From: a virus
Taxonomy: Duplodnaviria; Heunggongvirae; Uroviricota; Caudoviricetes
DNA length: 64,000 nt
Virus record (IMG/VR): IMGVR_UViG_3300049811_000196
Span: 1 to 64,000 of that record
Direction: 5' to 3' (one strand)
Each line of letters begins with the position of its first letter. Position 1 is the stretch's first letter. The notes under the pieces were generated by a model. The model searched no databases. It worked only from the letters and a program-made list of their open reading frames with translations, and was not told the DNA's origin. Positions 1,179-62,775 of this stretch are shown here, in pieces. Position numbers and translations under genes: made by a program.

Positions 1179-1341
1179 TAATGTGATATTTATAAAAGTA
1201 TATTGAGAGTTTATTGGTGTGGTTACCAATAAATGATAAACGAAAAAAAACGAAAGGGGGTATTCTCAAATCTCGACAAGGAACTCGTAAGAGTTCCTTT
1301 GTTGTTTATTTAAAATACGATATTTATTAATAAATAAATGT

Positions 1342-4065: not shown

Positions 4066-4079
4066 AAAAAACAAATAAT

Positions 4080-4376
4080 ATGAAAAAAGGAAAAATCACA
4101 TTAGAAGAAACAATAAAAAAAATCAAGAAACTTAACAAGTCATTAAGTGAACAAAATTTTTTCGGAGATGACGATTTCGGAGGAGAAGAATTATCCAATG
4201 ACGATGAATCGTTTGATCATAGATCCGATGATGATGCCGAACAAATATTTATGAGTGCCATGGATAAAATTCGGGAAATTAGAGGATCTGATTACTCTGA
4301 AGATGTGTACCATAAATGGGTTGAAAGTTATTTCTTTAAAAGGAATGGACCAGATGAAGATATGGGTCCAATGTAA
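4080..4376 (+). CDS. small acidic hypothetical protein
   Basis: 98-aa ORF followed by a terminator hairpin. Confidence 0.4.
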   Translation: MKKGKITLEETIKKIKKLNKSLSEQNFFGDDDFGGEELSNDDESFDHRSDDDAEQIFMSAMDKIREIRGSDYSEDVYHKWVESYFFKRNGPDEDMGPM

Positions 4377-4386
4377 AATAAAAAAA

Positions 4387-4411
4387 CCTCAGAAATTTCT
4401 GAGGTTTTTTT
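4387..4411 (+). terminator. rho-independent terminator
   Basis: cctcagaaatttctgagg followed by a T-run. Confidence 0.7.
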
Positions 4412-5040
4412 GTGGAGGTGTTGGGTTTCGACTTTTTTGGACTATCTCATCATCTTTTCAGATGTCGGACGCTCTTGATGGTTTTACGATAGAAGCGTCT
4501 ATCACCCATTAGTCTCTGCACCTTTTTCTTCCTACGAAACTTGGCTCAGGATTGTCTAAAATTAGATTTTCCCTGAATTCATCCGATTTTTCAATCAATA
4601 TTTCTATTGAAAGGGGCTCGATTTAACCCAAGTCTTGTCCGTTAACCAATAAATGGACTACACGTTTATTACAACATTGTTTCTCAATGTTCCGAAATAT
4701 TAGGTTTGATATTTGTGAGAACCCCACCTACAAACAACTTGGTCTCAGAATTATTTTAAACGAGCTCTGACCTGTCACTCGTATAACGGACTTCTGTTCC
4801 TGGGTTATATGTCCTAATCGACCCGAAGTAGAGCCCAACTTGGTTAGGCTACTACGTTAGAAGTTGCAAGAATACCTGCAGCTTCCATATTTGCGTAAAC
4901 GTTGCCGTTTGTTTTTACCATCGTAGTTTTAAGTCATAGATGATGTCTGACTACGTGCCCATTTATCAATCAAACGTCAATCAATTCCAGTCACCCCCAT
5001 TATGTCAAATAACTTATATATTAAATATAGAAAAAATTCC

Positions 5041-5718
5041 CTAAATAACAAATAATGGTAAAAACTTTTGATATTTGGCTTCAAAAAATAATTTATTTTT
5101 TTCCCACTTCTTATCTGTTGCACCAATTGATTTATGGATAACCATTATTTTGGTGGTAACACCTATTTTAACACCTTGTCTAAAATTAAGTACACAAAAA
5201 GGTACATCATAAAAATGAAACCCCTCAAATTCCTCATCAAATCTTTCTTTAATTCTATTTTTATCGACAGCAAAAAACAACCCATCGACCATAACAACTT
5301 CTTTTAGATTATCTCCAAAAGTATCTGAGTAAGCACTTAACCATGTTTTATCTCCTTGTTGGTGTTTAACCTGACCATACATTGTTTGTCTGTTCTGCCA
5401 CCACATACCATTGAGTAATTGTGTTGTTCCCGCCAATCCGATAATCCCATATTCAGGATTATTTCTGAATAATCTATTTAATTTTTTAGTTACGTCTTGG
5501 GTTTCTATAAATAAGTCGTCGTGCATGTACACAACAAGATCGTTTTTACTCTCATCTAATCCTTTGTTATAGAGTTGTGGTAATGAGTACTCACCATTAT
5601 TTTCATATACTAAAATCTCAGTATCGGGATGATTAAACCGTTCAGTAACATGTTTTATATAATCATCATCCCTTTTCCTTGTTGAAATAACAACACTAAA
5701 TGCATTACTCATATTCAA
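5041..5718 (-). CDS. putative glycosyltransferase-like protein
   Basis: 225 aa. Weak GT-like segment VYMHDDLF. Overlaps the next gene by 14 nt. Confidence 0.35.
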   Translation of the reverse strand: MNMSNAFSVVISTRKRDDDYIKHVTERFNHPDTEILVYENNGEYSLPQLYNKGLDESKNDLVVYMHDDLFIETQDVTKKLNRLFRNNPEYGIIGLAGTTQLLNGMWWQNRQTMYGQVKHQQGDKTWLSAYSDTFGDNLKEVVMVDGLFFAVDKNRIKERFDEEFEGFHFYDVPFCVLNFRQGVKIGVTTKIMVIHKSIGATDKKWEKNKLFFEAKYQKFLPLFVI

Positions 5719-6448
5719 CTATATTAACTTTTAAATCACCGTTTATCTCCTCTAAATCTAAGATAATTGGTTTATTGATCGGTTCATATCTTTCGGTGCA
5801 AATTGACGCATTTACATATGTGATGTCATTATTTTGTTTGACACCATATCCATCATGGATGTGACCAAAAACATGAATTTTGGGTTTTATTTCATTCACT
5901 CTAAAATGCAATAGTTTACACCCAACATGTCCTCCCATCGGAGCAAAATCTAAATGACCGAATGGAGGTCCATGTGTTATTAAAATATCGGTATTGTTTG
6001 GAATGTTGTTCCATTTCTCCTCGATCTCATTACCATTTCTTGGGAGATTAAATGCCCAATTATAGAATTCGGGTTGCCACGGACTTCCATATATCAAAAT
6101 CGGTCTCGATATTTCAGGATGGTTTATAATTATTTGATTATCAAATAAATACGTTACCTTTGACTGTGATAAATTTTCTTCATGTAATAAATGTCTTAAC
6201 CAATCAAACTCTTCTTTATGATTTGGTAAATACATTTGTTCGAACGCAAAATCATGATTTCCTGCAATGAATATTTTCTGATCAAATCCTTCAATCGATT
6301 TAAACCATTGAATGAATTCGGTTATTTCACCCCTTCTTCCTCGATTTGTGGCATCACCAGAATGTAGTAATACATTACCTTTGGGTAAGTTATATAACAT
6401 TTGGTTATGTAATGAGTGTGTATCGGAAATCAAAACAATCCTAATCAT
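5705..6448 (-). CDS. calcineurin-like metallophosphoesterase
   Basis: Motifs ISDTH, GDATNRG, GNHD and GHIH. Confidence 0.75.
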   Translation of the reverse strand: MIRIVLISDTHSLHNQMLYNLPKGNVLLHSGDATNRGRRGEITEFIQWFKSIEGFDQKIFIAGNHDFAFEQMYLPNHKEEFDWLRHLLHEENLSQSKVTYLFDNQIIINHPEISRPILIYGSPWQPEFYNWAFNLPRNGNEIEEKWNNIPNNTDILITHGPPFGHLDFAPMGGHVGCKLLHFRVNEIKPKIHVFGHIHDGYGVKQNNDITYVNASICTERYEPINKPIILDLEEINGDLKVNIVEYE

Positions 6449-6497
6449 GTTATATAATATAACAAAAAATAAACGTAAATAAAAAATATTTAATAAT

Positions 6498-7967
6498 ATG
6501 GAGTTACATAAATTGTTGTTAGAGGAAACTGATGAGGACGTTGTATTAAACGCCCTTAAAGAGTTAATTAAGAATAGTGAGTGGGATGGTAAAGTCTATT
6601 TAGTTGGTGGTGCGGTTAGAGATGAAATAATGGGTAAGAAACCCAAGGATTTAGATTTTGTAGTAAATGGAGATCTCAATGCGGGGATTGATTTTTCTAT
6701 ATGGTTAGCAGAAAAACTTGGGAACCATAAGAAAGGTAGTAATCCCGTAGTATATCCAAGGTTTGGTACATCAAAACTTTCTCTTACAAACAATAATAAA
6801 GGTTTACCTGAAATTGAATTGGAATTTGTTGCTCCGAGAAGAGAAGAGTATGATGGTAAATCAAGAAAACCGAATGTTAGTGGTGGTGATTTAAAAGCGG
6901 AGGTCGAGAGGCGGGATCTAACAATTAATTCATTATTAAAAAATATTTCAAATAATGAAGTTTTGGATTTAAGTGGTTATGGGGTAAAAGATATTGAAAA
7001 CGGTATTATAAGAACTACTTCGGATCCTGATGTTATATTCAAGGAAGATCCTCTCAGGATGTTGAGAGCGGTCAGATTTGCGGTAAAATATGATTTTAAA
7101 TTCAGTACGGAGGTACTAAAGGGGATTAAAAAAAATGCTCATTTAATTAATAATATATCCTCTGAAAGAATTGCGGATGAATTAAACAAAATATTATTAT
7201 CACCAGATCCAAAGAAGGGTATACGATTATTAAAAGTAACTGATTTATTAAAATACGTTATTGAGGAATTTAATGATGCCATTGGTATGAAACAAAACCA
7301 GCACCATAAGGATGACGTTTTTATGCACACAATGGATGTTCTTTCAAAAACTCCTCCAGAGTTGAAAACAAGACTTATGGCGTTATTTCATGACATCGGT
7401 AAAGTTTTAACCAAAACCGTAACTCCAGAAGGGTCGGTTCATTTCTATAATCATGAGGAAGAAGGTGCGAAAATGGTTGAAACCATAATGAGAAGATTGA
7501 AATATCCAAATGAGTTAACCAAATCCGTGGTTTCTGGAGTTAGACATCACATGAGATTAAAACATGGTGGTGATGAAGGAAATGTTTCAGATAAGTCGTT
7601 AAGAAAATTTGTTGCGGCTGTGGGAGAAAATTTGGAAAATATACTGGATCTAATTCATGCGGATAACATATCACATTCAGAACATTCCTCAATGCCTAAT
7701 CAGATATCTAACATTAAAAAAAAGTTAGATACTTTGAATATGCAGTTGGATAAAAATAAACCGAAATTACCAATAAACGGTAATGATTTAATCGCAATCG
7801 GATTTAAACAGGGTCCAGAAATTAAAATTGCATTAAACGCTGTTGAAGAAGCATATTACGATGATCCAAATTTGGATAGAGAAACGGCAATAAACATTGC
7901 GAGATCAACTAAAGTCGATAAAGAGATAAATGAAATAAAAAATTTCATTTCTCGTATGATGGATTAG
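6498..7967 (+). CDS. cca: CCA-adding tRNA nucleotidyltransferase with HD domain
   Basis: LVGGAVRDEIMG...DLDFVV matches the Pol-beta head of CCA enzymes. HD motifs HHKDDVFMHT and LFHDIGK. Confidence 0.85.
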   Translation: MELHKLLLEETDEDVVLNALKELIKNSEWDGKVYLVGGAVRDEIMGKKPKDLDFVVNGDLNAGIDFSIWLAEKLGNHKKGSNPVVYPRFGTSKLSLTNNNKGLPEIELEFVAPRREEYDGKSRKPNVSGGDLKAEVERRDLTINSLLKNISNNEVLDLSGYGVKDIENGIIRTTSDPDVIFKEDPLRMLRAVRFAVKYDFKFSTEVLKGIKKNAHLINNISSERIADELNKILLSPDPKKGIRLLKVTDLLKYVIEEFNDAIGMKQNQHHKDDVFMHTMDVLSKTPPELKTRLMALFHDIGKVLTKTVTPEGSVHFYNHEEEGAKMVETIMRRLKYPNELTKSVVSGVRHHMRLKHGGDEGNVSDKSLRKFVAAVGENLENILDLIHADNISHSEHSSMPNQISNIKKKLDTLNMQLDKNKPKLPINGNDLIAIGFKQGPEIKIALNAVEEAYYDDPNLDRETAINIARSTKVDKEINEIKNFISRMMD

Positions 7968-35600: not shown

Positions 35601-36017
35601 TCAGAGAGAAACCTGAATTTTATTTTTTTCAAACCATTCTTCAAGTGTGAATACGTTGTATTCAATTCCCTGAATATCATATTTGTCAAAAGAATACCCC
35701 ATGAATTCAACTTGTTCAAAAAATGTTTCTCCAATTGTTTTATGTTCTTTCCAATCTTTATCCTTGAAATATTCCAATACATCAAAGACAAATTTCTCTT
35801 TGCTTTCATATTCAAATGGAATAACAACATCAGATGAATATGTGTATCCATCACCGATTGTATGACATAAGATTAGTTTCATTTTATACTGTTTTAGTTG
35901 TAAATGATGCGGTCTATTACGGATTCGAACCGAAATTACTGCATAGACAGTGCAGCGTGGTACCATTACACTAATAGACCATTTATTGTTTTTTAAAAAT
36001 TTTTGGCGGATTTTCAC
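35601..36017 (-). CDS. hypothetical protein
   Basis: 138-aa ORF. The alternative-frame ORF 35582..35854 is less likely. Confidence 0.35.
   Translation of the reverse strand: MKIRQKFLKNNKWSISVMVPRCTVYAVISVRIRNRPHHLQLKQYKMKLILCHTIGDGYTYSSDVVIPFEYESKEKFVFDVLEYFKDKDWKEHKTIGETFFEQVEFMGYSFDKYDIQGIEYNVFTLEEWFEKNKIQVSL
35910..35980 (-). tRNA. tRNA-Asp (GTC)
   Basis: Acceptor GGTCTAT/ATAGACC. Anticodon arm CTGCA-CTGTCTA-TGCAG. Confidence 0.8.
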
Positions 36018-36930
36018 CGTAACTTCTTATCCATTTTCTAATTGCGTTATCACTAACGCCATATTTTTTTCCAGTACCAACATACCCCAATTCTTTAATT
36101 TCTTTAATAAGAATTTCAAGTGATGGTCTAAAGACCTTTCTTTGTTTTAATTTTGCACATGTGCAGCAAATCCGATCTTTTGATTTAATTATGTTTCCAC
36201 AAGGACAAAAATATGTTTTACGAATTCTTTGTTTTTTTTCTTTTTTACTAAAAATACCAAACGAATAATTTTCTTTTTTATCGGCAGAATTTAAAATTTT
36301 TTCCAATTCAAAAAGAAAAGTGTTTAAATTTTTTTTAACCTCACTTTCTGTAACCCTAACAACAACCCACCCATTTTCTTTTAGGTGTTTATCTTTTTTT
36401 TCATCTTGATTTTTTCTTTCCTCAAGTTGATGTTGTGATCCGTCTATTTCTACCGCAACTTTTTCATTTAAAAAAGCAAAATCAATAAAAAAGGGGAATA
36501 CCGACCATTCTCTTTCAATTCTATATTTTTCACCCCAATTCTCCAATGTTATCTTATCTAAAAATAATCTTTCAGGGTATGATAGATTTTTTTTCCTCCA
36601 TGCTGTTTGTTCGGGATTATTTTTCATGAACAACAAACGCTTTTCTCTCAATTTTTGCTTACTTTCTTCAGTATGTTTAAATGGGTATTTTATAATAGAT
36701 ACCCTGCGAGCATCAGATTGGTTTCTTATCTTATCTGCTAATAGTTTTCTTATTGTTTCAGAGTGAATTTTAAATTTTTTCCTTAGATCATTAATAGAAA
36801 ATAATTGATTCACATACAAATCAATTATTTCGTTTTTAACTGAATTAAGATGTTTACATGCTTTTTCGTGAGATAACATTTGTTTACCCTTTAATTTAAA
36901 CTCTTTTTTACATATTGAACACTTTTGCAT
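35983..36930 (-). CDS. DUF559/Vsr-like (PD-(D/E)XK) homing endonuclease with Zn-ribbon and C-terminal HTH
   Basis: FIDFAFLNEKVAVEIDGSQH...GWVVVRV. CPCGN...CCTCAK. GTGKKYGVSDNAIRKWI. Confidence 0.7.
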   Translation of the reverse strand: MQKCSICKKEFKLKGKQMLSHEKACKHLNSVKNEIIDLYVNQLFSINDLRKKFKIHSETIRKLLADKIRNQSDARRVSIIKYPFKHTEESKQKLREKRLLFMKNNPEQTAWRKKNLSYPERLFLDKITLENWGEKYRIEREWSVFPFFIDFAFLNEKVAVEIDGSQHQLEERKNQDEKKDKHLKENGWVVVRVTESEVKKNLNTFLFELEKILNSADKKENYSFGIFSKKEKKQRIRKTYFCPCGNIIKSKDRICCTCAKLKQRKVFRPSLEILIKEIKELGYVGTGKKYGVSDNAIRKWIRSYGENPPKIFKKQ

Positions 36931-36992
36931 TTGAAGTATTTATAATAAATACTTCGAACCGTCATCAAGTCATATAACTCAATAAAAAATAG

Positions 36993-37064
36993 TATCCCTA
37001 CACAGAGTTGAACTGAGATCTTAACATTGAAAATGTTACGTGCGAACCGTTACACCATAGGGAC
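36993..37064 (-). tRNA. tRNA-Glu (TTC)
   Basis: Acceptor GTCCCTA/TAGGGAT. Anticodon arm TAACA-TTTTCAA-TGTTA. Confidence 0.8.
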
Positions 37065-37075
37065 ATTAAAACATG

Positions 37076-37147
37076 TGGTAAGAGGCGGGATCGAACCGCC
37101 GACCAGATCATCTTCAGTGATCCACTCTACCGCTGAGTTACCTTACC
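37076..37147 (-). tRNA. tRNA-Phe (GAA)
   Basis: Acceptor GGTAAGG/TCTTACC. Anticodon arm GATCA-CTGAAGA-TGATC. Confidence 0.85.
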
Positions 37148-37161
37148 ATATTATTTTTTTG

Positions 37162-37242
37162 TTGGCACGGAGGGATTTGAACCCACGTTTTCAACACCGC
37201 TACAAGTTCTCCATCTTATCAGGATGGGCTGAGTACGTGCCA
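37162..37242 (-). pseudogene. tRNA-Ile (GAT)-like gene without canonical D-arm
   Basis: Perfect anticodon arm CCATC-CTGATAA-GATGG and acceptor TGGCACG/CGTGCCA. Only 8 nt between acceptor and anticodon stem. 24 nt between anticodon arm and T-arm. Confidence 0.4.
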
Positions 37243-37276
37243 ATCTCCATTATGTCAAAGAACCAAAGTTCAAAAG

Positions 37277-37350
37277 TGGACACGGTGGGATTCGAACCCT
37301 ACGATAAGCCACTGGGTGGGGCCGGCAACCAACCACCGCATCGTGCCCAA
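37277..37350 (-). pseudogene. degenerate tRNA-like element
   Basis: Acceptor TGGGCAC/GTGTCCA and GGG-TTCGAAT-CCC. Other arms do not fold. Confidence 0.3.
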
Positions 37351-37419
37351 AATAATTTCGTGTCTGTAGAACCTATATATTTCTACACTTAGAGTTCTAA
37401 TGTAGGTTAGAACAACGTG

Positions 37420-37494
37420 TGGACCGAGTGGGTATCGAACCCACCTCACTCTCCTTGCAAGGGAGAATCGCCAATCCGTGGTACATGTCAGCCC
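37420..37494 (-). tRNA. tRNA-Ala (TGC)
   Basis: Acceptor GGGCTGA/TCGGTCC, including G-U pairs. Anticodon arm TCTCC-CTTGCAA-GGAGA. Weak D-arm. Confidence 0.65.
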
Positions 37495-37506
37495 AAAAAC
37501 AAAAAA

Positions 37507-37535
37507 CCTCGGAATTTTTTGTTCCGAGGTTTGTT
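37507..37535. terminator. rho-independent terminator hairpin
   Basis: cctcggaa tttttt gttccgagg followed by T's. Confidence 0.6.
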
Positions 37536-37798
37536 TTACTTAAAGATCTATGTTTTCTTAAATCTTTTCTGTATAAACAGTTCGGAACAAGGCAATATCA
37601 TCCTGCTTCGCCCATTCACAACGAATAATAAATGACATTTTATGTTGGTACTGTTTCATTTGAAAAATTTAAGTTTTATTTCTTTTACAAAGATATATAT
37701 AAATATTGTAAAAACAAACAAAATTCAAAAAATATTTTTTTTGTGTGGATCATTCCGGGATCGAACCGGAGACATGGACATTTATAATTATAAAATTG

Positions 37799-37870
37799 TG
37801 ATTCCAGTGGGATTCGAACCCACGTAAATACTTTTAGAGAGTACTGTTTTAACCACTAAACTATGGAATC
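37799..37870 (-). tRNA. putative amber-reading tRNA, anticodon CTA
   Basis: GATTCCA-TA-GTTT-AGTGGTTA-AAAC-A-GTACT-CTCTAAA-AGTAT-TTAC-GTGGG-TTCGAAT-CCCAC-TGGAATC-A. All arms canonical, U33, A37. Confidence 0.7.
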
Positions 37871-38572
37871 GAGTTTTTTAAATGCTTTTACCCATTTTCT
37901 GATTGAATTATCTGAAACACCGTATTTTTTTCCGGTACCAACATAACCTAAAACTTCAATATCATGTAATAAAGTCATATAATCTGGTCGAGGTACTTTT
38001 CTAAGGTGTTTGTTTTTATTAATGTGATGGTGAGCATCAAGTATTTTGGGTTCTTTCTTATTTTTTTTGTTTTTAATGTTTTTTCCGCAATGAGTTTCTA
38101 AAGTGGCATTACAATTTGGGCATAAAAATCTTAAGTTATTTAATCTATTATCATCATTAACGCCGTTTATATGATCTAAAATTAATGATATTTTTTTACC
38201 GTTCCATATTCCAATATTAGAACATAAAACACATTTATACTCCAATACGTTTTCTTTTATTATGCGTTTTTTTAAAGATGTCCTATCGTATGTTGAATTT
38301 TCAACTAACATGTCCAACATTGGTGTTTTATAACCATTGTTAGGATATTTCCGAAGAAAAGAACTATGATTTAAAAAATGGGATACATCAAATCCATTAT
38401 CCATAATCAATTTTTTAATTTTTTTATAATTACTTCCATTAATGTTCCAACCCAATTGAATCATTACATCTTTATAAGTTTCACTGTTTTTAATAATTTG
38501 CAATAAATTGTCCATATATGATAAATATGGACATATAATCAAAAAGGTTCGATGGTTCGAAAAAAAAAACAA
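37856..38572 (-). CDS. HNH homing endonuclease with C-terminal HTH
   Basis: DHINGVNDDNRLNNLRFLCPNCNATLETHC. C-terminal GTGKKYGVSDNSIRKWV. The 3' end overlaps the tRNA(CTA) 5' end by 15 nt. Confidence 0.8.
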   Translation of the reverse strand: MFFFSNHRTFLIICPYLSYMDNLLQIIKNSETYKDVMIQLGWNINGSNYKKIKKLIMDNGFDVSHFLNHSSFLRKYPNNGYKTPMLDMLVENSTYDRTSLKKRIIKENVLEYKCVLCSNIGIWNGKKISLILDHINGVNDDNRLNNLRFLCPNCNATLETHCGKNIKNKKNKKEPKILDAHHHINKNKHLRKVPRPDYMTLLHDIEVLGYVGTGKKYGVSDNSIRKWVKAFKKLDSIV

Positions 38573-43525: not shown

Positions 43526-44683
43526 TCATTTTACTCTTTTATTCTTTTTTGTGATTAATGGTGTCTCATCTTTAATTTTAAACACATATTCAAGACTTGG
43601 TTTAATTTCTCCCATTAGAATTTGTTCGCTAATGAAATCTTCACATATGTTTTGAATTATCCGTTTTATCGGTCTTGCACCATATTCCTCTTGTTTATTG
43701 AGTTCAAAAATTCGGGTAATTACTGATTTATCAAATGTGATGTTATAGTCTTTCTCAGATAATCTATTATTCAATTTTTCAATCTCTTTGTCAATAATCG
43801 TTTTAAGTGTTTCTTCATTTAATGGATTGAATAGAATGATGTCATCAATTCTATTCAAAAATTCAGGATTAAACTGTTGTTTTAATGATTTTTCGATTAT
43901 TGATTTTCTTACTTCATATTTTTGATTTTCACTTGATGTCGTTGAAAACCCGATACCATTACCAAACTCGGAGACTTTTTTTGCACCCACATTTGATGTC
44001 ATTATAATAATGGTGTTGGTGAAATTTACCTTCCTGCCGAAAGAATCCGTCAAATGACCCTCATCTAAAATCTGTAATAAAATGTTATAAACATCTTTAT
44101 GAGCTTTTTCAATTTCATCAAAAAGAATGACTGAAAATGGATTGTTTTTAACTTTTTCAGTTAATTGCCCACCTTCTTCATGACCAACATATCCGGGAGG
44201 AGATCCAATTAATTTAGCAACGTTATGTTTTTCCATGTATTCGCTCATATCGACACGAATAATTTTATCCGGATCCCCAAAAAGTAATTCCGCCAAGGAT
44301 TTTGCTAAATACGTATTATGTGACAAAATTCCTGAAGTGTAATATCTATGGTTTGAATTTTCCGTTAATTCAAAATCATACATTGTTTCGCTTCGATTCA
44401 AATTCAAAATATGTTCAACCGATTCAAGACCAGTTTCGGTATAAATTAAATCACCGACATGTAAATCTTTAACAAATACTTCCTCCATGTTGTTATTAAA
44501 AACAATATGGGTGTCAGCACATTGCAAAACATAATTATTGGTTTTCAACTCCCAAACCTCATATGGTACTGTTTCATGTAACGCCTCAACATTTACAAAT
44601 CCATTGTCTGTTAATATTTCGTAATCACTTAAATTAAATGTCTTCGTTATTTTTCTTTCAATAGTCTCAGATAAAATTTCCAT
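43526..44683 (-). CDS. ClpC/ClpB-like AAA+ ATPase, C-terminal fragment (C-intein plus D2 domain remainder)
   Basis: After ...GILSHN comes TYLAKSLAELLFG...IRVDMSEYMEKHNVAKLIGSPPGYVGHEEGGQLTE...ILFDEIEKAH...MTSNVG, the Clp D2 sensor and Walker B region. Confidence 0.8.
   Translation of the reverse strand: MEILSETIERKITKTFNLSDYEILTDNGFVNVEALHETVPYEVWELKTNNYVLQCADTHIVFNNNMEEVFVKDLHVGDLIYTETGLESVEHILNLNRSETMYDFELTENSNHRYYTSGILSHNTYLAKSLAELLFGDPDKIIRVDMSEYMEKHNVAKLIGSPPGYVGHEEGGQLTEKVKNNPFSVILFDEIEKAHKDVYNILLQILDEGHLTDSFGRKVNFTNTIIIMTSNVGAKKVSEFGNGIGFSTTSSENQKYEVRKSIIEKSLKQQFNPEFLNRIDDIILFNPLNEETLKTIIDKEIEKLNNRLSEKDYNITFDKSVITRIFELNKQEEYGARPIKRIIQNICEDFISEQILMGEIKPSLEYVFKIKDETPLITKKNKRVK
44315..44683 (-). 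mobile_element. C-terminal part (123 aa) of a split mini-intein
   Basis: Block B-like CADTHIV. Block F MYDFELTENSNHRYYTSG. Block G ILSHN followed by extein Thr. Confidence 0.7.
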
Positions 44684-44703
44684 ATTTTTGTTTTAAATTT
44701 TAA

Positions 44704-45963
44704 TTACGAATTTAAGAAAATAATACAATTTTCTAACACTTTTTCTGGTGATTTTCTATAATCATTATCCCAAATAGTAAGAACTTGAAATCCTAAATTA
44801 TTAGCCGCTTCTATTTTTAATTTATCTTTTTCCCAAATTTGCTTTGCTGTTAAGGTTTTTCTAAATGGATGAGGAAAATCGTCTTCTACATATGTACGGG
44901 GATTTGCGTGGTACATATCACCATTATACTCAATAATTTTCATTTTTTTTAAATCGGTATAGTCATATAAATAAAAACTTGTATCAGTCTTGATTTTATA
45001 TTCTTCATTTTTTGTGGCAAACATTATGTTAATATGATGATTTATGTCTTCTAACTTTAAAATATCATAAAATAATTTTTGAGAAGATATCGAATAACCA
45101 AAACGCATATTTCCGTTTTGTGTTAAAGACTTATTCCATTTTATTTGTCTTTCACTAAATCTCCTCCTACCCTCTTCTTCACCATACTTTTCAATACAAA
45201 TATCGAGCGTAAATGTTTTTTGTCGTTGACTTACTTTGAGAACCGATTGTTCGTAAGTGTATCCTTGTTTTTCCCAATATTCTGTTCGAGTTGTTGATGA
45301 ACTAAAATATTTTTCAGGATTAAGTCCGCGTTTTAAAATATAATTTTCTGAATTTAATTTTTGAATTTTAGAAATATTAAGTTTTGCTTCTTGTTCGTTA
45401 TAACCACGTTTCAACCAATATTGAATTGAAAAATGTGATTTTGATGATAGGAAATCCATGATCTCTTTTTCACTCATACCTTTTTCACGCATATCATCCT
45501 TAGATAAAGATTTTCTATTCACAACTAATTTAGAAGATTTTTGTTGTTGTTTACTTATTTCTTGTTTCGCCCGCATCTCATCATACCCCTTAATAGTCCA
45601 ATATTCAACACACAACCTATTCCTTTTTTTTATTTCGATGTTTCTTTTACTGAGTATAGATTTAGCAGTACCCTCAGACCATCCACGTTCTAACCAGTAA
45701 TTGATATTACCATACTTTTTGGTTTTGAATTTATAGTTTTTTCTCAACCAATGAATTAATAAAGAAAATGACACCTCACCTTCATCATTGATTAACTTAG
45801 TATATAATCTATCATATTCCTCACAAAAACATTCATTACCTAAATTTTTATCAATTGTAATAATATGTGAAACAAATTCGTTGAATGTTGAAAAATAGTT
45901 TTTAGCGTCTATTTTTTTCTTTAAAAATTTTAAAACCACGATGATCTTACGTACTGTTGTCAT
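44704..45963 (-). CDS. free-standing DUF559/Vsr-like (PD-(D/E)XK) endonuclease with N-terminal DNA-binding repeats
   Basis: Four repeats of xYWLxRGYxExEAK type. C-terminal KIIEYNGDMYHA...GFQVLTIWDNDY. Confidence 0.65.
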   Translation of the reverse strand: MTTVRKIIVVLKFLKKKIDAKNYFSTFNEFVSHIITIDKNLGNECFCEEYDRLYTKLINDEGEVSFSLLIHWLRKNYKFKTKKYGNINYWLERGWSEGTAKSILSKRNIEIKKRNRLCVEYWTIKGYDEMRAKQEISKQQQKSSKLVVNRKSLSKDDMREKGMSEKEIMDFLSSKSHFSIQYWLKRGYNEQEAKLNISKIQKLNSENYILKRGLNPEKYFSSSTTRTEYWEKQGYTYEQSVLKVSQRQKTFTLDICIEKYGEEEGRRRFSERQIKWNKSLTQNGNMRFGYSISSQKLFYDILKLEDINHHINIMFATKNEEYKIKTDTSFYLYDYTDLKKMKIIEYNGDMYHANPRTYVEDDFPHPFRKTLTAKQIWEKDKLKIEAANNLGFQVLTIWDNDYRKSPEKVLENCIIFLNS

Positions 45964-45984
45964 TCGAAGACCAATTCGTTTATT

Positions 45985-47340
45985 TTATTTGGATTTACTG
46001 GTTTCGGACAGTATGTTATTTATAAATACTTCAATACTAACAGAAAACTCTTTGCCGGTAGATTTTTCTCTTAATGTTATATTAGAGTTTTTTGTAATAC
46101 ATTTACCCACCCCTGTTGATCCTAAAAATATAAAACTACCGATAGGTTTATTCCCATCTTTAATTCCAACCCTGTTTCTCCTAATCGCTTTAGCAATTAG
46201 AGAAATTGCTCCATCTTGTCCAATTACTTTTTTTGACAGAATTGTTTCAATTTTTAACAATTTTTCACTTTCTTTTGAATCCAGTTTAGATACGGGAACA
46301 CCAGTTATTTGGGTAATGATGTTATAAACATCCTCAATGGTTATAGGTGTTTTATTATTTTTTTGTTTTTCTTCCCATTTTTTCTTTTCCTCATCGAGCT
46401 TGAGAAGAATTTTTCTTTCGTCGTCTCTCAACTTTGCTGCCTGTTCATAATTTTGATTTTTGACAACTTGGAGTTTTTTCTCTTTTATCTCGTCAGATTC
46501 TTTTCTTAATTTTTCAATATGTTCTGGAATTCTGCTCGAAACTTTCTTTTCAGATCCGAGTTCATCCAAAATATCAATGGCTTTATCAGGAAATTGTCTA
46601 TCGGTTATGTACTTATGACATAACTTAACAATGGTTTCAATAACCTCATTTTCATAAGTGACTTTATGGAAAGTCTCGTATGATTTTTTGAGATTTTTTA
46701 AAATATCAATGGTTTCATTTACGGTTGGTTCTTTTAATATGATTTTTTGGAACCTTCTAACCAAGGCTCCGTCCTTTTCTATATGTTTTTTAAATTCGTC
46801 AAACGTTGTTGCACCAATACATTGTATTTCACCCCTTGCCAATGCTGGTTTTAGGATATTTGCGGCATCCATAGACCCACTCGCATTACCAGCACCAACC
46901 ATTGTGTGTAATTCGTCAATAAATACAATAACATTCGGAGCTTCCTGTAATTCATTTAAAATAGCCTTTATTCTTTCTTCAAATTGTCCCCTATATTTTG
47001 TTCCCGCAACAATAGATGTTAAATCGAGGGACACTATTCTCTTGTCCAATAAGTTATTGGGACATTCCCCCTTGTGTATCATTAAAGCCAGCTTCTCAAC
47101 CAATGCGGATTTACCAACACCCGCATCACCAACAATAACGACATTGTTTTTTTTCTTCCTTGATAATATTTGTGCAATCCTTTTTACTTCACCATCTCGA
47201 CCAATTACAGGGTCTATCTTACCTTCTTCCGCTAATTTTATTAAATCTCTCGAAAAATTATCAAGTATCGGTGTGTTGGAACCCTTCTTAATTTTTTTAG
47301 GATTTAATGTTTGACCTTCTTCATAAAATTCTACAGACAT
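45985..47340 (-). CDS. ClpC/ClpB-like AAA+ ATPase, N-terminal fragment (D1, UVR-like middle region, start of D2) plus 38-aa N-intein
   Basis: GDAGVGKS. CIGATTFDEFKKHIEKDGALVRRFQKI. NYEQAAKLRDDERKIL. VIGQDGAISLIAKAIRRNRVGIKDGNKPIGSFIFLGSTGVGK, then CITKNS... in place of the Walker A Thr. Confidence 0.8.
   Translation of the reverse strand: MSVEFYEEGQTLNPKKIKKGSNTPILDNFSRDLIKLAEEGKIDPVIGRDGEVKRIAQILSRKKKNNVVIVGDAGVGKSALVEKLALMIHKGECPNNLLDKRIVSLDLTSIVAGTKYRGQFEERIKAILNELQEAPNVIVFIDELHTMVGAGNASGSMDAANILKPALARGEIQCIGATTFDEFKKHIEKDGALVRRFQKIILKEPTVNETIDILKNLKKSYETFHKVTYENEVIETIVKLCHKYITDRQFPDKAIDILDELGSEKKVSSRIPEHIEKLRKESDEIKEKKLQVVKNQNYEQAAKLRDDERKILLKLDEEKKKWEEKQKNNKTPITIEDVYNIITQITGVPVSKLDSKESEKLLKIETILSKKVIGQDGAISLIAKAIRRNRVGIKDGNKPIGSFIFLGSTGVGKCITKNSNITLREKSTGKEFSVSIEVFINNILSETSKSK
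45988..46101 (-). mobile_element. N-terminal part (38 aa) of a split mini-intein inserted at GVGK|T of the D2 Walker A
   Basis: Cys1 replaces the P-loop Thr. The ORF stops after ...NILSETSKSK. The downstream fragment restarts MEILSETIERK, so ILSET is duplicated. Confidence 0.7.
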
Positions 47341-47492: not shown

Positions 47493-47873
47493 ATGTATAC
47501 ATTACAGAAATCTCCGTTCAAAAACCTTTTAGATGGGTTCTTTAATGATTTTGATTATTTGGTAGATGCCAACTATCAATTACAAACAAAAACAATAAAC
47601 AACGAAAATGAATTCCTTATTGGTATTTCTGTGCCGGGATTGAAAAAGGATGATGTGAAAGTTTCTTTGGATAATAAAATATTATATGTTGAATACTCTC
47701 CTCCGGAAACAAAAAAGGAATTTAATTTTACTTCCGCATTTAAAAAATCTTTCTATATTCCTGATGATGTTGATGAAACATCGATTTCGGGAACAATAGA
47801 AGATGGTATTTTAAAGATATCCCTACCAAAAACAAAAAAGAAACCCTCCCAAAGATTGATTACGGTCAATTAA
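47493..47873 (+). CDS. small heat-shock protein (Hsp20/alpha-crystallin family)
   Basis: C-terminal SGTIEDGILKISLPK resembles the Hsp20 GVLTVTVPK motif. Confidence 0.7.
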   Translation: MYTLQKSPFKNLLDGFFNDFDYLVDANYQLQTKTINNENEFLIGISVPGLKKDDVKVSLDNKILYVEYSPPETKKEFNFTSAFKKSFYIPDDVDETSISGTIEDGILKISLPKTKKKPSQRLITVN

Positions 47874-47940: not shown

Positions 47941-48183
47941 ATGGGAATATTATCAGAAAAAATCGAAGGAAAAACAATTTCAGTATCTATTCAATCTTCA
48001 AATCTAAAATTAGCCACTTATGATACCGAAAGTAAGTTATTAGAAATTCAGTTCAATAATGGTGGTATTTATCAATATGAAAATGTTCCTTGGGAGGTTT
48101 TCACCAAATTTAGAATGGCAGAATCTCAGGGAAAATTTTTTAATCAACATATTGGTAAAGTGTATAAATACAAAAAGATATAA
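47941..48183 (+). CDS. KTSC-domain protein
   Basis: YDTESKLLEIQFNNGGIYQYENVPWEVFTKF...SQGKFFN. Confidence 0.6.
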   Translation: MGILSEKIEGKTISVSIQSSNLKLATYDTESKLLEIQFNNGGIYQYENVPWEVFTKFRMAESQGKFFNQHIGKVYKYKKI

Positions 48184-54448: not shown

Positions 54449-57433
54449 ATGGCTGATAAAAATTTAACAGTATTTCAAAGGTTAACTAAAATGTTTGGTT
54501 TTCCTGGTGAAGTTAAACAGGAAAAACAATCACCTAGATTTGAATTTAACAAAGATCAAATACTAAAAACAGATAGCATAGAAGATTATGAAAAAGCTCG
54601 TCTTCAAGCGCAGCAAACACAATACATTGTAGATAAGTGGGCAAAATTAGATCAATCTTTATATAATCAATCTGTATATTATGAACCAAACAGATTGGCG
54701 GCATATTATGATTACGAATCTATGGAGATGTGTATTTTGGGGGACACAAAAATAGCAACTCCTGATGGTTTTGTAACCATTAAAGAATTAGCAGATAGGG
54801 GGAGAGATTATGAATTTATAACATATGCATATGATCATAATCTTAAAAAAGTAGTTCCTGCTATAGCTAGAAATGCCCATTATACGAGAGATGACATGAC
54901 CTATAAGATTACTTTCGATGATGGTTCTCACATTATTGCGACAGAAACCCATAGATTTTTAAAAAGAGATGGTGTTTTTGAAGAACTACGAAATTTAAAG
55001 GTTGGTGACTCAATGATGCCGTTTTATAGAAAATCATTCTATAATAATCAAAATTATAATTGGGTCTATGTATGTAATTCAAAAGAAGGACATAACGGAT
55101 GGGTTCCTGAACATAATTTAATTGCGGAATGGTATTTTAAGAAGAAAATAAATAAAGAAGAAGAGGTTCACCATATTGATTTTAATGGTAAAAATAATCT
55201 ACCATCTAATTTGTTGATAATGGATAGATCTGAACACCGATCTTTTCACGCAAAGATAAATAATGAAAAATTATGGTCAAATCCAAAGTATAGATTATTA
55301 ATGTCGGAAGTCGCAAAAAGAAAGGGTAAATATAATTGGAATGGTAAGAGGAAGGGTAAAAATAATCCTTCGTACATCGATATTTCATTTAATGAAATTA
55401 TCGAGGTTTCAAAAATACATAGAACTCAAGAAAAAACTGCAAAACATTTAGGAGTGTCTGTTGCAAAACTACAAGATGAACTAAAATTAAATGGTTTTAA
55501 AAATTGGGATTTATTTTTGGATGTTTACGGTATTAAAAAATTAATTCCACAAACGGAAAATAGAGAATCAATAAATTTTAAACATGTTCCTTGGGATTTA
55601 ATTATTGAATCTGCTAAAAAATATAAATCAATACGCAAAACATCTGATTTTATTGGTATAAGTAGATCTAAATTAATGTCATCATTAAGAATGAACGGTT
55701 ATAAACGATGGGACACTTTTTTAGATGCATATGGAATAGAAAAGTCGAAAATAGGTAGAGATATAAAACATGATAAAATAACCATTAATCATAAAATAGT
55801 ATCTATCGAACCATATGGAGTATTCCCCGTTTATGATTTGACTGTTCCAGGGTATAAAAATTTCGCAACAGACACTATTTTTTCCCATAATACCCCCGAA
55901 ATATCCGCAGCTTTGGATATATACGCAGAAGAATCTACTGCGGTATCTGAAAAGGGGGAGATATTGACAATATTTTCTGAATCGGATAGGATTAAAGAGA
56001 TTTTAACGGATTTGTTTGTTAACAAATTAGACATAAATACAAATCTACAGATGTGGGCTAGGGGTATGTGTAAATACGGGGATAATTTTGTTTATTTAAA
56101 AATAGATCCGAAAGAAGGTATCGTTGGATGTCAACAACTTCCAAATATTGAAATAGAGAGGTGGGAAGGAACTGGAACAAAAACACCAACTCAAAATGAT
56201 ATCAAGTCTCCGGTTAGAGAATTGAGATTTAAATGGAATAATAAGGATTTGGAATTTCAGTCTTGGGAAATCGGTCATTTTAGACTTTTAGGTGACGATA
56301 GAAAACTTCCATATGGTACGTCAATGTTGGATAAAGTTAGAAGAATTTGGAAACAACTTCTTTTAGCTGAGGATGCTATGTTGATTTACAGAACCAGTAG
56401 AGCACCTGAACGTAGGGTCTTTAAAGTATTTGTTGGTAACATGGACGATAAAGATATTGAACCCTATATACAACGTATTGCCAATAAGTTTAAGAGAGAT
56501 CCTATTGCTGACCCAAAAAACGGTCAAGTTGATATGAGATATAATCAAATGGCTGTTGATCAGGATTACTTTATACCCGTAAGAGATCCGTCACAAACCA
56601 ATCCGATTGAAACTTTACCGGGTGCTCAGAACTTGGGAGAAATTGCGGACATAGAATATATTCAGAAAAAATTATTAACTGGATTAAGAATACCTAAAGC
56701 GTTTCTTGGATTTGAAGAAGTTGTGGGTGATGGTAAATCTTTGGCTTTAATGGATATCAGATTTGCGAGAACCATTAATAGAATACAAAAATCATTAATT
56801 CAAGAATTAAATAAGATTGCATTAATGCATCTTTATTTATTGGGTTTAGAAGATGAACTAGACAATTTTTCGTTATCCTTAACTAACCCATCCGCACAAT
56901 CCGATCTATTAAGAATAGAACAATGGAAAGAAAAAATTGCGTTATATAAAGACGCAACATCAGATCAATCCCAATTAGGTATTTTACCTGTTTCCCATAC
57001 TTGGGCAAAAAAGAATATTTTAGGAATGAGTGATGCTGAAGTTATTCTTGATTTACAACAACAAAGATTGGAAAGAGCAATGGGATTTGAGTTAACAAAT
57101 ACCCAAAACGTGATTAAAAGATCTGGTGTATTTGATGAGGTCGATTCGAGGTATGGTATACCAGAAGAAGAAAGAAAGAAATTAGAGGCTCAAAACTTAA
57201 ACGCCGATAACGATATGAACCCCGGCGGTGGATTAGATATGGGTGGCGGAGCACCACCTCCTCCGGCAGAGGGTGGAGGAGGAGAACCCCCCCTAAGTGA
57301 ATCCTTAAAAAAACATAAATTATTTACCTTAACCGAAGGAACAAACTTAGAAGACTTGTTTGATATGGAAAAGGCTCAACAGAATATTTATGAAATAGAA
57401 AACAAGATAAATAATATTTTAAATGATAAATAA
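54449..57433 (+). CDS. portal vertex protein (T4 gp20-like) containing an intein
   Basis: 994-aa ORF. Extein about 607 aa. Contains a Hint domain with HNH (see intein feature). Confidence 0.8.
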   Translation: MADKNLTVFQRLTKMFGFPGEVKQEKQSPRFEFNKDQILKTDSIEDYEKARLQAQQTQYIVDKWAKLDQSLYNQSVYYEPNRLAAYYDYESMEMCILGDTKIATPDGFVTIKELADRGRDYEFITYAYDHNLKKVVPAIARNAHYTRDDMTYKITFDDGSHIIATETHRFLKRDGVFEELRNLKVGDSMMPFYRKSFYNNQNYNWVYVCNSKEGHNGWVPEHNLIAEWYFKKKINKEEEVHHIDFNGKNNLPSNLLIMDRSEHRSFHAKINNEKLWSNPKYRLLMSEVAKRKGKYNWNGKRKGKNNPSYIDISFNEIIEVSKIHRTQEKTAKHLGVSVAKLQDELKLNGFKNWDLFLDVYGIKKLIPQTENRESINFKHVPWDLIIESAKKYKSIRKTSDFIGISRSKLMSSLRMNGYKRWDTFLDAYGIEKSKIGRDIKHDKITINHKIVSIEPYGVFPVYDLTVPGYKNFATDTIFSHNTPEISAALDIYAEESTAVSEKGEILTIFSESDRIKEILTDLFVNKLDINTNLQMWARGMCKYGDNFVYLKIDPKEGIVGCQQLPNIEIERWEGTGTKTPTQNDIKSPVRELRFKWNNKDLEFQSWEIGHFRLLGDDRKLPYGTSMLDKVRRIWKQLLLAEDAMLIYRTSRAPERRVFKVFVGNMDDKDIEPYIQRIANKFKRDPIADPKNGQVDMRYNQMAVDQDYFIPVRDPSQTNPIETLPGAQNLGEIADIEYIQKKLLTGLRIPKAFLGFEEVVGDGKSLALMDIRFARTINRIQKSLIQELNKIALMHLYLLGLEDELDNFSLSLTNPSAQSDLLRIEQWKEKIALYKDATSDQSQLGILPVSHTWAKKNILGMSDAEVILDLQQQRLERAMGFELTNTQNVIKRSGVFDEVDSRYGIPEEERKKLEAQNLNADNDMNPGGGLDMGGGAPPPPAEGGGGEPPLSESLKKHKLFTLTEGTNLEDLFDMEKAQQNIYEIENKINNILNDK
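54731..55891 (+). mobile_element. 387-aa intein with HNH endonuclease and two HTH modules
   Basis: Starts CILGDTKIATPDG (block A). TETHRF (block B). HNH EVHHIDFNGKNNLPSNLLIMDRSEHRSFH. HTH KTAKHLGVSVAKL and SDFIGISRSKL. Block F VYDLTVPGYKNFATD. Block G IFSHN followed by T. Confidence 0.8.
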
Positions 57434-61053: not shown

Positions 61054-62775
61054 ATGGGAGCATTATTAGAATCAGGTATGGTTGGTAACATTGGCTTAAA
61101 GCACTTACGTGTTATCAAAGAAGATACCATTAAAAAATGGGATGAGTTAGGTTTCCTTGAGGGACTTGACGGTCATCAAAAAGATAACATTGCACAATTA
61201 TATGAGAACCAAGCCTCATATTTGATCAATGAAGCCGCAGTGGCTGACGCATCAGGTTCATTTGAAACTGTTGTGTTTCCAATCATTAGGAGAGTTTTCT
61301 CCAAATTATTGGCGAATGACATCGTATCTGTACAAGCCATGAACTTACCAATTGGTAAATTGTTCTACTTTGTACCTAAAATTCAGGACAGAAATGCGGG
61401 AGCTCACTGGTCACCATATGGTTATCCAAGTGTATCAACTAACCCAGCAGAAGGTTATACTGATGTAAGAAACCTTTATGATCGTTTCTATGAGCAATCA
61501 GATGATGCCGATCAAGGTCTTTTCGACTACTCAAAAGGTGATTATACCACAGTATCTTTAACAGGTACGTCACTTGTTACTTTCTCTAGTGGTGTTGAAA
61601 GTGCATTTACTGGTGCAACTGGTACATCATTAAGTTCTGTAATTCTTAAACTTACTGGTTTTTCAAAATTAGGTCAAGGAAAATTAGCTGGTCCTGACGG
61701 TAACGAAATGGATACAGAAGAATTCTTGGCTTCATTACAAGTAAGTTCTGCACAAGTACAGGGTGGAGCATCATTACCATTCAATGTGGTAACACAAAAA
61801 TATGGTAAAGGTATCGTAGCATACGGACAAAAATCCGCAGGTACTAATGGAAACTTATTCCAAGACATCTGTGATGAAGACGGTGTTATCTATTTAAATG
61901 TTGATTTAGAAAGTTACAATAGTGCATCAGGTTTTACTAGTTACACAGTTACTGGTTCAACATTAATTGGTACTGACTTCGTTGCAACATATCGTAGATA
62001 TGATACCTTAGAATTCGAAGATCAAATTGGTGAGGTTTCTTTCGATTTGGAATCTGTAACGGTTTCCGTAACTGAAAGAAAACTTAGAGCAACCTGGTCT
62101 CCTGAATTAGCTCAAGACGTTAGTGCATTCCACAACATCGATGCTGAGGCAGAATTAACAGCTCTTCTTTCTGAGCAAATCGCAGCAGAAGTTGACCGTG
62201 AAATTCTTCGTGACCTTAGAAAAGGTGCGGCATGGAAAGCTAAGTGGGATTACAACGAATGGAAGTATGGTAACGGTGGATCAGCATATGTTGGTTACAC
62301 TCAAAAAGACTGGAACCAAACGTTAATCACCAAGATTAACCAACTTTCAGCTCAAATCCATAAAACAACCTTGAGGGGTGGAGCTAACTGGATCGTTGTT
62401 TCTTCTGAAGTTTCAGCGGTATTCGATGACTTAGAGTATTTCCACGTATCAAACGCTCATCCTGAGCAAGATCAATACAACATGGGTATTGAGAAAATTG
62501 GTACTCTCGCTGGTAGATATCAAGTTTATCGTGACCCTTACTTCCCAGCAGGTAAGATTTTGATCGGACATAAAGGTAAATCATTGCTTGATGCTGGTTA
62601 TGTATACGCACCATATGTGCCATTACAATTAACCCCAACAATGTTCAATCCGTTCAACTTCACACCCATTAAGGGTATCATGACCCGATACGCTAAAAAG
62701 ATGGTTAACAACCGTTATTTCGCGGTTATCGATGTCAAAGGTATCGTAACATACGATTTGAATACCTTGAGATAA
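61054..62775 (+). CDS. major capsid protein (T4 gp23-like)
   Basis: C-terminal LLDAGYVYAPYVPLQLTPTMFNPFNFTPIKGIMTRYAKKMVNNRYFAVIDVKGI parallels gp23 DAGIYYAPYVALTPL...FKTRYG...YFRRVYVKGI. 573 aa. Confidence 0.9.
   Translation: MGALLESGMVGNIGLKHLRVIKEDTIKKWDELGFLEGLDGHQKDNIAQLYENQASYLINEAAVADASGSFETVVFPIIRRVFSKLLANDIVSVQAMNLPIGKLFYFVPKIQDRNAGAHWSPYGYPSVSTNPAEGYTDVRNLYDRFYEQSDDADQGLFDYSKGDYTTVSLTGTSLVTFSSGVESAFTGATGTSLSSVILKLTGFSKLGQGKLAGPDGNEMDTEEFLASLQVSSAQVQGGASLPFNVVTQKYGKGIVAYGQKSAGTNGNLFQDICDEDGVIYLNVDLESYNSASGFTSYTVTGSTLIGTDFVATYRRYDTLEFEDQIGEVSFDLESVTVSVTERKLRATWSPELAQDVSAFHNIDAEAELTALLSEQIAAEVDREILRDLRKGAAWKAKWDYNEWKYGNGGSAYVGYTQKDWNQTLITKINQLSAQIHKTTLRGGANWIVVSSEVSAVFDDLEYFHVSNAHPEQDQYNMGIEKIGTLAGRYQVYRDPYFPAGKILIGHKGKSLLDAGYVYAPYVPLQLTPTMFNPFNFTPIKGIMTRYAKKMVNNRYFAVIDVKGIVTYDLNTLR

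Follow-up and report, generated by a model that had tools for sequence, protein, structure and literature searches.

How can a phage obtain a working ATPase from a gene that is interrupted in the middle of a nucleotide-binding motif and whose two parts are encoded by separate reading frames? This question is raised by a locus in a 64,000-nucleotide stretch of viral DNA (IMG/VR record IMGVR_UViG_3300049811_000196, positions 1 to 64,000; hereafter the window), which we identified as belonging to a T4-like myovirus carrying genes for a gp17-type TerL, a gp20 portal and a gp23 capsid protein. A previous reading based on sequence only had proposed three consecutive open reading frames (ORFs), which we find on the minus strand, as are all features of the locus described below: a first ORF encoding the N-terminal part of a Clp protein (N-ORF, 45985-47340, 451 amino acids), an endonuclease ORF (44704-45963, 419 amino acids) and an ORF encoding the C-terminal part of Clp (C-ORF, 43526-44683, 385 amino acids), with spacers of 21 nucleotides between the first two and 20 nucleotides, without overlap, between the latter two. 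Our analysis very probably defines a fractured ClpC-type gene, where a split intein resides in the Walker-A motif of the second ATPase module (D2) with an endonuclease gene located in the break, and where protein trans-splicing would restore a full-length Clp.

The two outer ORFs contain complementary parts of a ClpC-like protein. The N-ORF comprises an N-extein of 413 residues (46102..47340) with the first AAA+ module (D1), an AAA lid and a middle region of the UVR type, and this extein reaches into D2 as far as the sequence GSTGVGK; it is followed by 38 intein residues (C414-K451, the cysteine included) and a TAA stop codon, an organization that had been recognized earlier and that is reflected in Pfam matches to AAA, AAA_lid_9 and UVR. 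In the C-ORF, the intein residues M1-N123 precede a C-extein of 262 residues plus TGA (43526..44314), consisting of the Walker-A threonine in position +1 (T124) and the 261 residues by which D2 is completed, among them the GIGF loop and the D2-small domain, with Pfam matches to AAA_2 (E 1.9e-59) and ClpB_D2-small from residue 123. In alignments with proteins from the PDB, the N-ORF covers residues 156-552 of B. subtilis ClpC (E 2.6e-134) and the match ends at ...FLGSTGVGK, while the C-ORF covers residues 551-785 of S. aureus ClpC and the match begins at the threonine, followed by YLAK.... Since the alignments end at GVGK and resume at the next threonine, no extein residue is lost or doubled, and the proposed extein junction GVGK|T within a collinear D2 holds, as it also does in comparison with the 79 uninterrupted relatives introduced below. 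The protein hence contains both AAA+ modules, the middle region and the D2-small domain. Pfam detects no Clp_N domain in the N-ORF, whose start corresponds to about residue 153 of ClpC, although this domain is present in the related phage allele L086. The C-ORF also retains a GIGF loop, aligned with the AGF that docks ClpP in S. aureus ClpC. Because Clp_N is absent and the docking loop is kept, the protein resembles, as judged from its sequence, an unfoldase coupled to ClpP more than a disaggregase of the ClpB type.

The residues intervening between the exteins show the hallmarks of an intein. Its N-terminal part (Int-N, C414-K451, 45985..46101) carries only block A, with Cys1 as its catalytic residue, and is composed of two β-strands, the helix α1 and the tail ...NNILSETSKSK, after which the TAA follows; contiguous inteins of this family begin with homologous sequence (CV.GDT.ITIRNKKTGE...). 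The C-terminal part (Int-C, M1-N123, 44315..44683) carries the remaining blocks B (CADTH), F (MYDFEL) and G (GILSHN). The F and G blocks, the terminal His-Asn and the subsequent threonine had all been assigned correctly in the sequence-only reading, whereas its proposed TxxH block reads CADTH. At the level of sequence the support is modest: in a phmmer search, the VidaL intein (PDB 6vgv) was matched with E-values of 3.4e-5 to 7e-6 at 24% identity. For the rejoined intein of 150 residues, a prediction with AF2 based on an alignment of 50 family sequences provided a model with a pLDDT of 95.1 and a pTM of 0.87, which is soft only in residues 31-40, corresponding to the linker interrupted in the gene; the equivalent prediction from the single sequence, with a pLDDT of 42, was useless. 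When the model was compared to the PDB with Foldseek, VidaL emerged as first match (E 6.7e-11, TM 0.78/0.81) and all of the top 50 matches were inteins or HINT domains. The positions used for splicing, including Cys1, the block-B histidine, block F, the terminal His-Asn and a threonine or serine at +1, are kept across the family, with H86, H149 and N150 being invariant in its alignment. By its predicted fold, the intervening sequence is thus a class-1 intein with a HINT domain whose splicing activity is suggested by these conserved features. In the model, helix α1 encompasses residues 23-27 and the break maps after this helix, to the low-confidence linker at residues ~30-38. The intein is accordingly split with the atypical S2-type geometry of a short Int-N and a long Int-C (38 + 123 amino acids), again as proposed before.

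[quoted passage not shown] The repeats had been noticed previously and are real; their description as IENR-like found no counterpart in a Pfam scan, where neither NUMOD nor IENR families were detected. The protein matches phrog_22677 (1e-21) and has 366 homologues. In an alignment of 30 of its homologues, residues D334, E345 and H352 within the C-terminal ~90 residues are invariant and D380 is nearly so, and 8 of 30 family members give sub-threshold matches to the Pfam family DUF559. An alignment with E. coli Vsr (PDB 1cw0) by hhalign places D334, E345, H352 and D380 opposite D51, F62, H69 and D97 of that protein. An invariant glutamate in the position of Phe62 was described as hallmark of a family of Vsr-like homing endonucleases (Dassa et al., 2009, PMC2677866). 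As three catalytic residues of Vsr and the glutamate at the position of Phe62 align, we assign the middle ORF with moderate confidence to this family.

In the fractured genes described in the same study, 15 of 16 endonucleases are preceded by a predicted hairpin, which in ten cases includes the sequence TATAAATA (Dassa et al., 2009). This T4-type late-promoter consensus is also found in the window (46017..46024), within the codons of Int-N and 54 nucleotides upstream of the ATG of the endonuclease, with 21 copies of the motif in the whole window compared to 11.8 expected. A weak hairpin is predicted in the RNA at 45958..46010, where the L-S-E-T-S codons in the tail of Int-N make up the 5' arm, and the sequence just upstream of and including the AUG of the endonuclease the 3' arm. 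At the equivalent place, hairpins that bury the start codon are predicted for the related alleles L083 (ΔG -24.2 kcal/mol, z -7.7), L086 (-17.6 kcal/mol, z -6.9) and L005 (-16.6 kcal/mol, z -5.7). Between L083 and the window, two changes in the pairing with the L-S-E-T-S codons look compensatory, but with only three sequences for comparison they are not claimed as covariation. A scan for sigma-70 promoters and terminators yielded counts that were no higher than in shuffled controls. By analogy to the known cases, the late promoter and the hairpin would control the expression of the endonuclease.

Several results weigh against the interpretation of the locus as a fractured gene restored by trans-splicing. 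The sequence-only reading had expected Hint and DUF559 domains, and the scores of the respective Pfam models remain below threshold: Intein_splicing (PF14890) scores 10.8 bits for Int-C and 19-20 bits for the rejoined intein at a cutoff of 35.8, and DUF559 scores 16.5 bits for the endonuclease at a cutoff of 20.6, with MTES_1575 being likewise sub-threshold. Since the Intein_splicing model misses this intein family, it is unusable as a negative test in this case, and the Hint similarity instead emerges from the VidaL match, the AF2 model and the Foldseek search. The confident HINT model describes an artificially rejoined chain and not the complex of two chains. In block B, the canonical threonine is absent and replaced by alanine, as it is in VidaL with its sequence CAFNH. 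The assignment to Vsr builds on a pairwise HH alignment with an E-value of 0.0024, and a search of PDB sequences with the profile of the endonuclease family did not recover Vsr. The hairpin of the window has a ΔG of -9.6 to -15.5 kcal/mol with a z-score of -2.5 in a short sequence context and of -1.1, which is not significant, in a longer one. Finally, we infer both the splicing activity and the cleavage target of the endonuclease from sequence.

To place the locus into context, a scan of viral contigs identified 80 loci with Clp proteins that are ~80% identical to the one in the window, where we have read the junctions by local tblastn. In 79 of these relatives, clp is uninterrupted and N- and C-extein meet precisely at GVGK|T; the remaining one, L005, shows the same three-ORF layout, with an Int-C that is 61% and an endonuclease that is 46% identical to their equivalents in the window. 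The nearest homologues of the endonuclease (L083, L084/85, L086/87 and L088) are all found in the same order, between an N-terminal and a C-terminal part of Clp. These fractured alleles stem from different samples and assemblers and constitute at least five independent assemblies, with the identity of their endonucleases reaching down to 46-58%. In five fractured assemblies other than the window, Int-N contains 31-37 residues, and Cys1, the block-B histidine and the sequence HN|T are kept throughout.

This distribution bears on the possibility that the insertion has destroyed both the intein and clp, leaving ORFs that are decaying remnants in a phage that relies on the Clp unfoldases of its host. 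The fractured form is indeed a minority among the relatives, the regulatory hairpin of the window looks degenerate and, for a phage, clp is probably accessory. Conversely, both halves have remained intact ORFs in the independent and diverged alleles, all catalytic residues are kept and a Nei-Gojobori analysis provided dN/dS values of 0.11-0.14 for Int-C and of ~0.07-0.08 for the exteins in comparisons free of synonymous saturation. The corresponding values for the endonuclease are 0.26-0.35, rising to 0.48 for the pair that has diverged most. As judged from these ratios, the intein parts are under purifying selection, and we regard a dead gene as improbable.

A second alternative concerns the fate of the two polypeptides, which might form a Clp subunit of two non-covalently associated chains or act as separate D1-only and D2-only proteins, in either case without ligation. 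Halves of split inteins bind each other tightly, some AAA+ proteins tolerate nicks in their backbone, and the computed results do not separate association from ligation. The break is, however, located inside the Walker-A motif between lysine and threonine, where the ~160 intein residues left in an unspliced complex would disrupt the nucleotide site of D2, and the conservation of Cys1, the block-B histidine, the terminal asparagine and Thr+1 is expected only if the chemistry of splicing is used. We thus regard an assembly without ligation as improbable.

In the mechanism that we propose instead, a class-1 mini-intein interrupts clp between the lysine and the threonine of the D2 Walker-A motif, and the intein is itself broken after its first helix. 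The locus would then give rise to two polypeptides, one of 451 residues containing D1, the middle region, the start of D2 and Int-N, and one of 385 residues containing Int-C and the rest of D2. The short Int-N would dock into the nearly complete Int-C and thereby complete the HINT fold, whereupon Cys1, the block-B histidine, the terminal His-Asn and Thr+1 would perform protein trans-splicing. The reaction is predicted to restore the sequence GSTGVGK-TYLAK (with the junction peptide GSTGVGKTYLAK) in an ATP-competent Clp subunit of 675 residues (413 + 262) and ~76 kDa. The endonuclease would serve as mobility engine only. It presumably cuts intein-less clp alleles during co-infection, around the sequence GGTGTTGGTAAA|ACATAT, and repair of the cut would copy the whole cassette consisting of Int-N, endonuclease and Int-C into the intein-less allele.

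That the three ORFs would instead result from assembly or sequencing errors in a single cis-splicing intein with embedded endonuclease is suggested by the N-ORF and the endonuclease ORF of the window sharing one frame, with one TAA and seven codons between them, but is extremely improbable given that the C-ORF is in another frame and recurs in identical form on another contig from a JGI metagenome (sample 3300037458), that the three ORFs persist in sister alleles of other samples, which differ in frames and in the spacers between Int-N and endonuclease (21, 44, 122, 46 and 56 nucleotides in five alleles, the window's among them and L088 left out), and that the endonuclease is equipped with a separate start codon and an upstream hairpin. 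A protein identical to the endonuclease is also encoded on an 82.6-kb JGI metagenome contig. The constant three-ORF organization in independent alleles with varied spacers and frames rules out a frameshift, a read-through fusion or a disguised cis-intein, and none of the stops, frames and spacers in the five alleles reveals a frameshift joining the ORFs, which the sequence-only reading had named as an outcome that would overturn it; the others that it named, a lack of Hint similarity and exteins not collinear with D2, are likewise not borne out. Read-through by the amber-suppressor tRNA of the window is equally ruled out, since a tRNA with the anticodon CUA cannot read TAA and the relevant stop codons are TAA, TAA and TGA.

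We then considered whether the cassette has moved between clp alleles. In a comparison of L083 and L084, the exteins are 72-80% identical with saturated synonymous sites, whereas Int-N is 97% and Int-C 93% identical (pS 0.17-0.26) and the endonuclease 78.5%. As the exteins of the two alleles are diverged while their intein parts are nearly identical, this mosaic indicates that the cassette has recently been transferred laterally from one diverged clp allele to another, and together with the empty sites in 79 of 80 relatives it fits homing. The intein-less alleles include L048 and L011, with the junction region located around GGTTCAACGGGTGTTGGTAAAACATAT. Candidate immunity changes at the target site, where the window reads GGG GTG ... 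ACG and the consensus of empty sites GGT GTt ... ACa, were rejected, and the comparison of junction DNA is uninformative because other occupied alleles match the consensus of empty sites. Within the window, Int-N (45988-46101) shows a pS of 0.31 with respect to L083 compared to 0.62-0.78 in flanking segments, a value that, at 37 codons, is noisy. This low synonymous divergence would fit either nucleotide signals embedded in the coding sequence, such as the late promoter and the hairpin arm, or a co-conversion tract.

In related phages, clp is also a hotspot for other inteins. The L086 locus (positions 1050-7228 of a 122-kb contig, JGI 3300077578) encodes an N-terminal part of 964 residues with Clp_N and a LAGLIDADG-containing insertion in D1, and a C-terminal part of 658 residues with a long extra region preceding Int-C. 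In another protein (P0174), D2 contains a second, LAGLIDADG-bearing intein, directly preceding the SSPGYIGY motif (...AKLHG|CFTPEM...VHN|SSPGY).

The breadth of the intein family was assessed in a search of 1.84 billion representative proteins with a profile of Int-C, which retrieved 1,846 clusters at E≤1e-3, of which 296 reached E≤1e-30. For the top 150 representatives, we have grouped the C-exteins by clustering and assigned hosts to the groups by Pfam. TerL proteins account for 106 of the 150, and in 88 of these the intein part is located at the extreme N-terminus of the protein. The set further contains DnaB-like (16), ClpX-like (5), SbcC-like (5), Clp D2 (4-5), gp44 clamp-loader-like (3) and ABC proteins (2) and one PIF1-like helicase. 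Natural atypically split inteins have been termed 'rare' in the literature; our figures for the top 150 representatives, which are not a full census, suggest that such inteins are common in T4-like phages and under-annotated. The under-annotation follows from the Pfam Intein_splicing model missing members of the family, and in relatives containing multiple inteins this model finds only the other ones, so that family members likely go unannotated in routine pipelines. Public metagenomes already contain many loci like the one in the window. Whether the locus belongs to a very large unannotated lineage of atypically split inteins, in which the split form is predominant and stable and which has spread via the Walker-A GK|T/S site among at least eight unrelated families of phage ATPases, is a proposal for which we see the odds as evenly balanced.

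Terminase genes of other phages contain further variations of this arrangement. In L002 (6726-8839 of a 15 kb contig, JGI 3300041698), a T4-type TerL is split at Walker A by an intein of the same family and an endonuclease gene is absent between the halves, with Int-N ending at a TAA at 7110 and Int-C starting with an ATG at 7133. The same contig contains many in-frame TAG codons at conserved positions and uses TAA as stop, which suggests a TAG-recoded phage. Some of the TerL fragments P0126, P0133, P0155 and P0241 start with Int-C and hold a further complete intein, and these fragments end with Int-N-like sequence just after the Walker-B DE (e.g. ...SHN|CLIIDE|CVVGNTEIMIKNK...). The sequences would imply that certain terminase genes are fractured into at least three pieces by several inteins.

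The family also informs about the origin of the break. Among the top 150 representatives, 17 are contiguous mini-inteins of 151-190 residues in TerL or DnaB-like proteins. Their N-termini, such as GK|CVSGDTQITIRNKKTGEIETI..., are homologous to Int-N of the window, and their variable linker coincides exactly with its break. The existence of contiguous members in the same family supports the view, already expressed in the sequence-only reading, that the intein of the window was once contiguous and has later been broken. The evidence that had been offered for this insertion, a duplication of the sequence ILSET on both sides of the break, did not withstand comparison. The two copies, while identical as protein, differ in 6 of 15 nucleotides, and the duplicate is absent from four sister alleles, whose Int-N tails read ...ILPKSSTT (L083), ...ILPKSITT, ...IIPNTN and ...KNIGF and whose Int-C heads read MQKCSENVERK... 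or contain longer leaders. The Int-N tail of the window aligns base for base with the tail of L083, from which it differs in point changes, and the motif LSxTIERKF is native to Int-C throughout the family. We have thus dropped the duplication as insertion scar, as it is confined to the window allele, resides in a tail that is homologous to L083 at the level of DNA and is encoded by codons that are part of the weak hairpin arm. It is unproven and possibly coincidental.

Fractured genes with split inteins and free-standing endonucleases have been described, as noted in the sequence-only reading, mainly in T4-like phages, where they affect eight types of enzymes of DNA metabolism and packaging (Dassa et al., 2009, PMC2677866). 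The locus in the window resembles these genes in the presence of a free-standing, putatively Vsr-like endonuclease ORF between two intein-extein ORFs on one strand and in the TATAAATA motif found upstream of the endonuclease, where the predicted RNA hairpin is weak in the window and strong in three sister alleles. It differs from them in its host, a Clp/Hsp100 unfoldase, and in the endonuclease and Int-C ORFs being 20 nucleotides apart. The atypical position of the break was observed once in that study, in a 'Terminase' locus, and the C-terminal part of GOS-TerL was described to contain 122 residues with every N-terminal motif but N1. A recent study from the Mootz laboratory (PMC13014065, 2026) assigns AceL-TerL and GOS-TerL to the S2 class, with a break after the first helix, and VidaL and PolB16 to the S1 class, and reports natural atypical Int-N lengths of 15-37 residues. 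Int-N contains 37 residues in GOS-TerL and 25 in AceL-TerL, and Int-C ~104-122, with both inteins originating from phage metagenomes. In a comparison by published geometry rather than sequence, the intein of the window, with its S2 split into 38 + 123 residues, is akin to both, which in turn reside in terminases and contain Cys+1 (Ser1/Cys+1 in GOS-TerL) compared to the insertion between lysine and threonine of Clp D2 with Cys1/Thr+1. VidaL, which is the closest solved structure, shares the natural atypical split and a block B of the form C-A-x-x-H, but is split earlier, after strand β2 (S1), with an Int-N of 16 residues, and interrupts another host gene.

Insertion between the Walker-A lysine and the nucleophilic threonine or serine of an ATPase is a property that the intein of the window shares with 'classic' P-loop inteins, and contiguous inteins are described in DnaB, MCM, RFC, TerL and similar proteins in two surveys (Novikova et al., 2016, PMC4760082; Kelley et al., 2016, PMC5050341). 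The main text of both articles names no Clp/Hsp100 protein as intein host, with chloroplast ClpP as sole mention of Clp. In the literature covered by our search, whose coverage is incomplete, we found no description of an intein in an ATPase of the ClpA/B/C/X type, consistent with the impression in the sequence-only reading that such a case was unreported. What is new is thus the Clp host protein, whereas the arrangement as fractured gene and the atypical split are already known. The locus extends both phenomena to a machine of protein quality control, and it would provide an example of an AAA+ motor whose main ATP site exists only after the proposed trans-splicing. We may speculate that splitting lets the phage gate the assembly of its unfoldase post-translationally. 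For protein engineering, the locus offers a natural split intein with short Int-N that combines Cys1 and Thr+1 at a Walker-A site, where a cysteine at +1 would be unneeded, and hundreds of diverged relatives to mine. With respect to phage biology, it marks clp of a widespread group of T4-like phages as an intein hotspot with sequence signs of recent cassette transfer.

The surroundings of the locus contain additional features. On the plus strand and divergent from clp, Pfam identifies genes for an Hsp20 small heat-shock protein (47493-47873) and a KTSC-domain protein (47941-48183), and both neighbours are also found next to clp in the related phages L084 and L086. The T4-type portal gene gp20 (54449-57433, plus strand) contains a contiguous intein at ~54731-55891 (residues 95-481, SMEM|CILGDT ... 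TIFSHN|TPEIS), which carries an HNH endonuclease domain with several PHROG HNH matches and is recognized by Pfam Intein_splicing (1.3e-15), with Portal_T4 following from residue 481. A region on the minus strand (35983-38572) encompasses five tRNA genes (36992-37870), one of which, labelled 'Pyl' by ARAGORN, has the anticodon CUA of the amber suppressor mentioned above; TAG still terminates 6 of 41 large ORFs of the window. The cluster is flanked on one side by a free-standing DUF559 endonuclease gene (35983-36930, E 1.4e-13) with TATAAATA just upstream at 36937-36944 and on the other by the ORF of a free-standing endonuclease with HNH motif (37856-38572), and the two flanking endonucleases have the C-terminal motif LGYVGTGKKYGVSDN(A/S)IRKW in common. 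Finally, in the gp23-type major capsid protein of 573 residues (61054-62775, plus strand), the Pfam Gp23 profile with its 376 positions spans residues 69-556, whereas the match of the PHROG major-head model is restricted to residues 310-550, which suggests that the N-terminal half of this protein contains an extra segment of ~130-200 residues, where no intein signal was seen.

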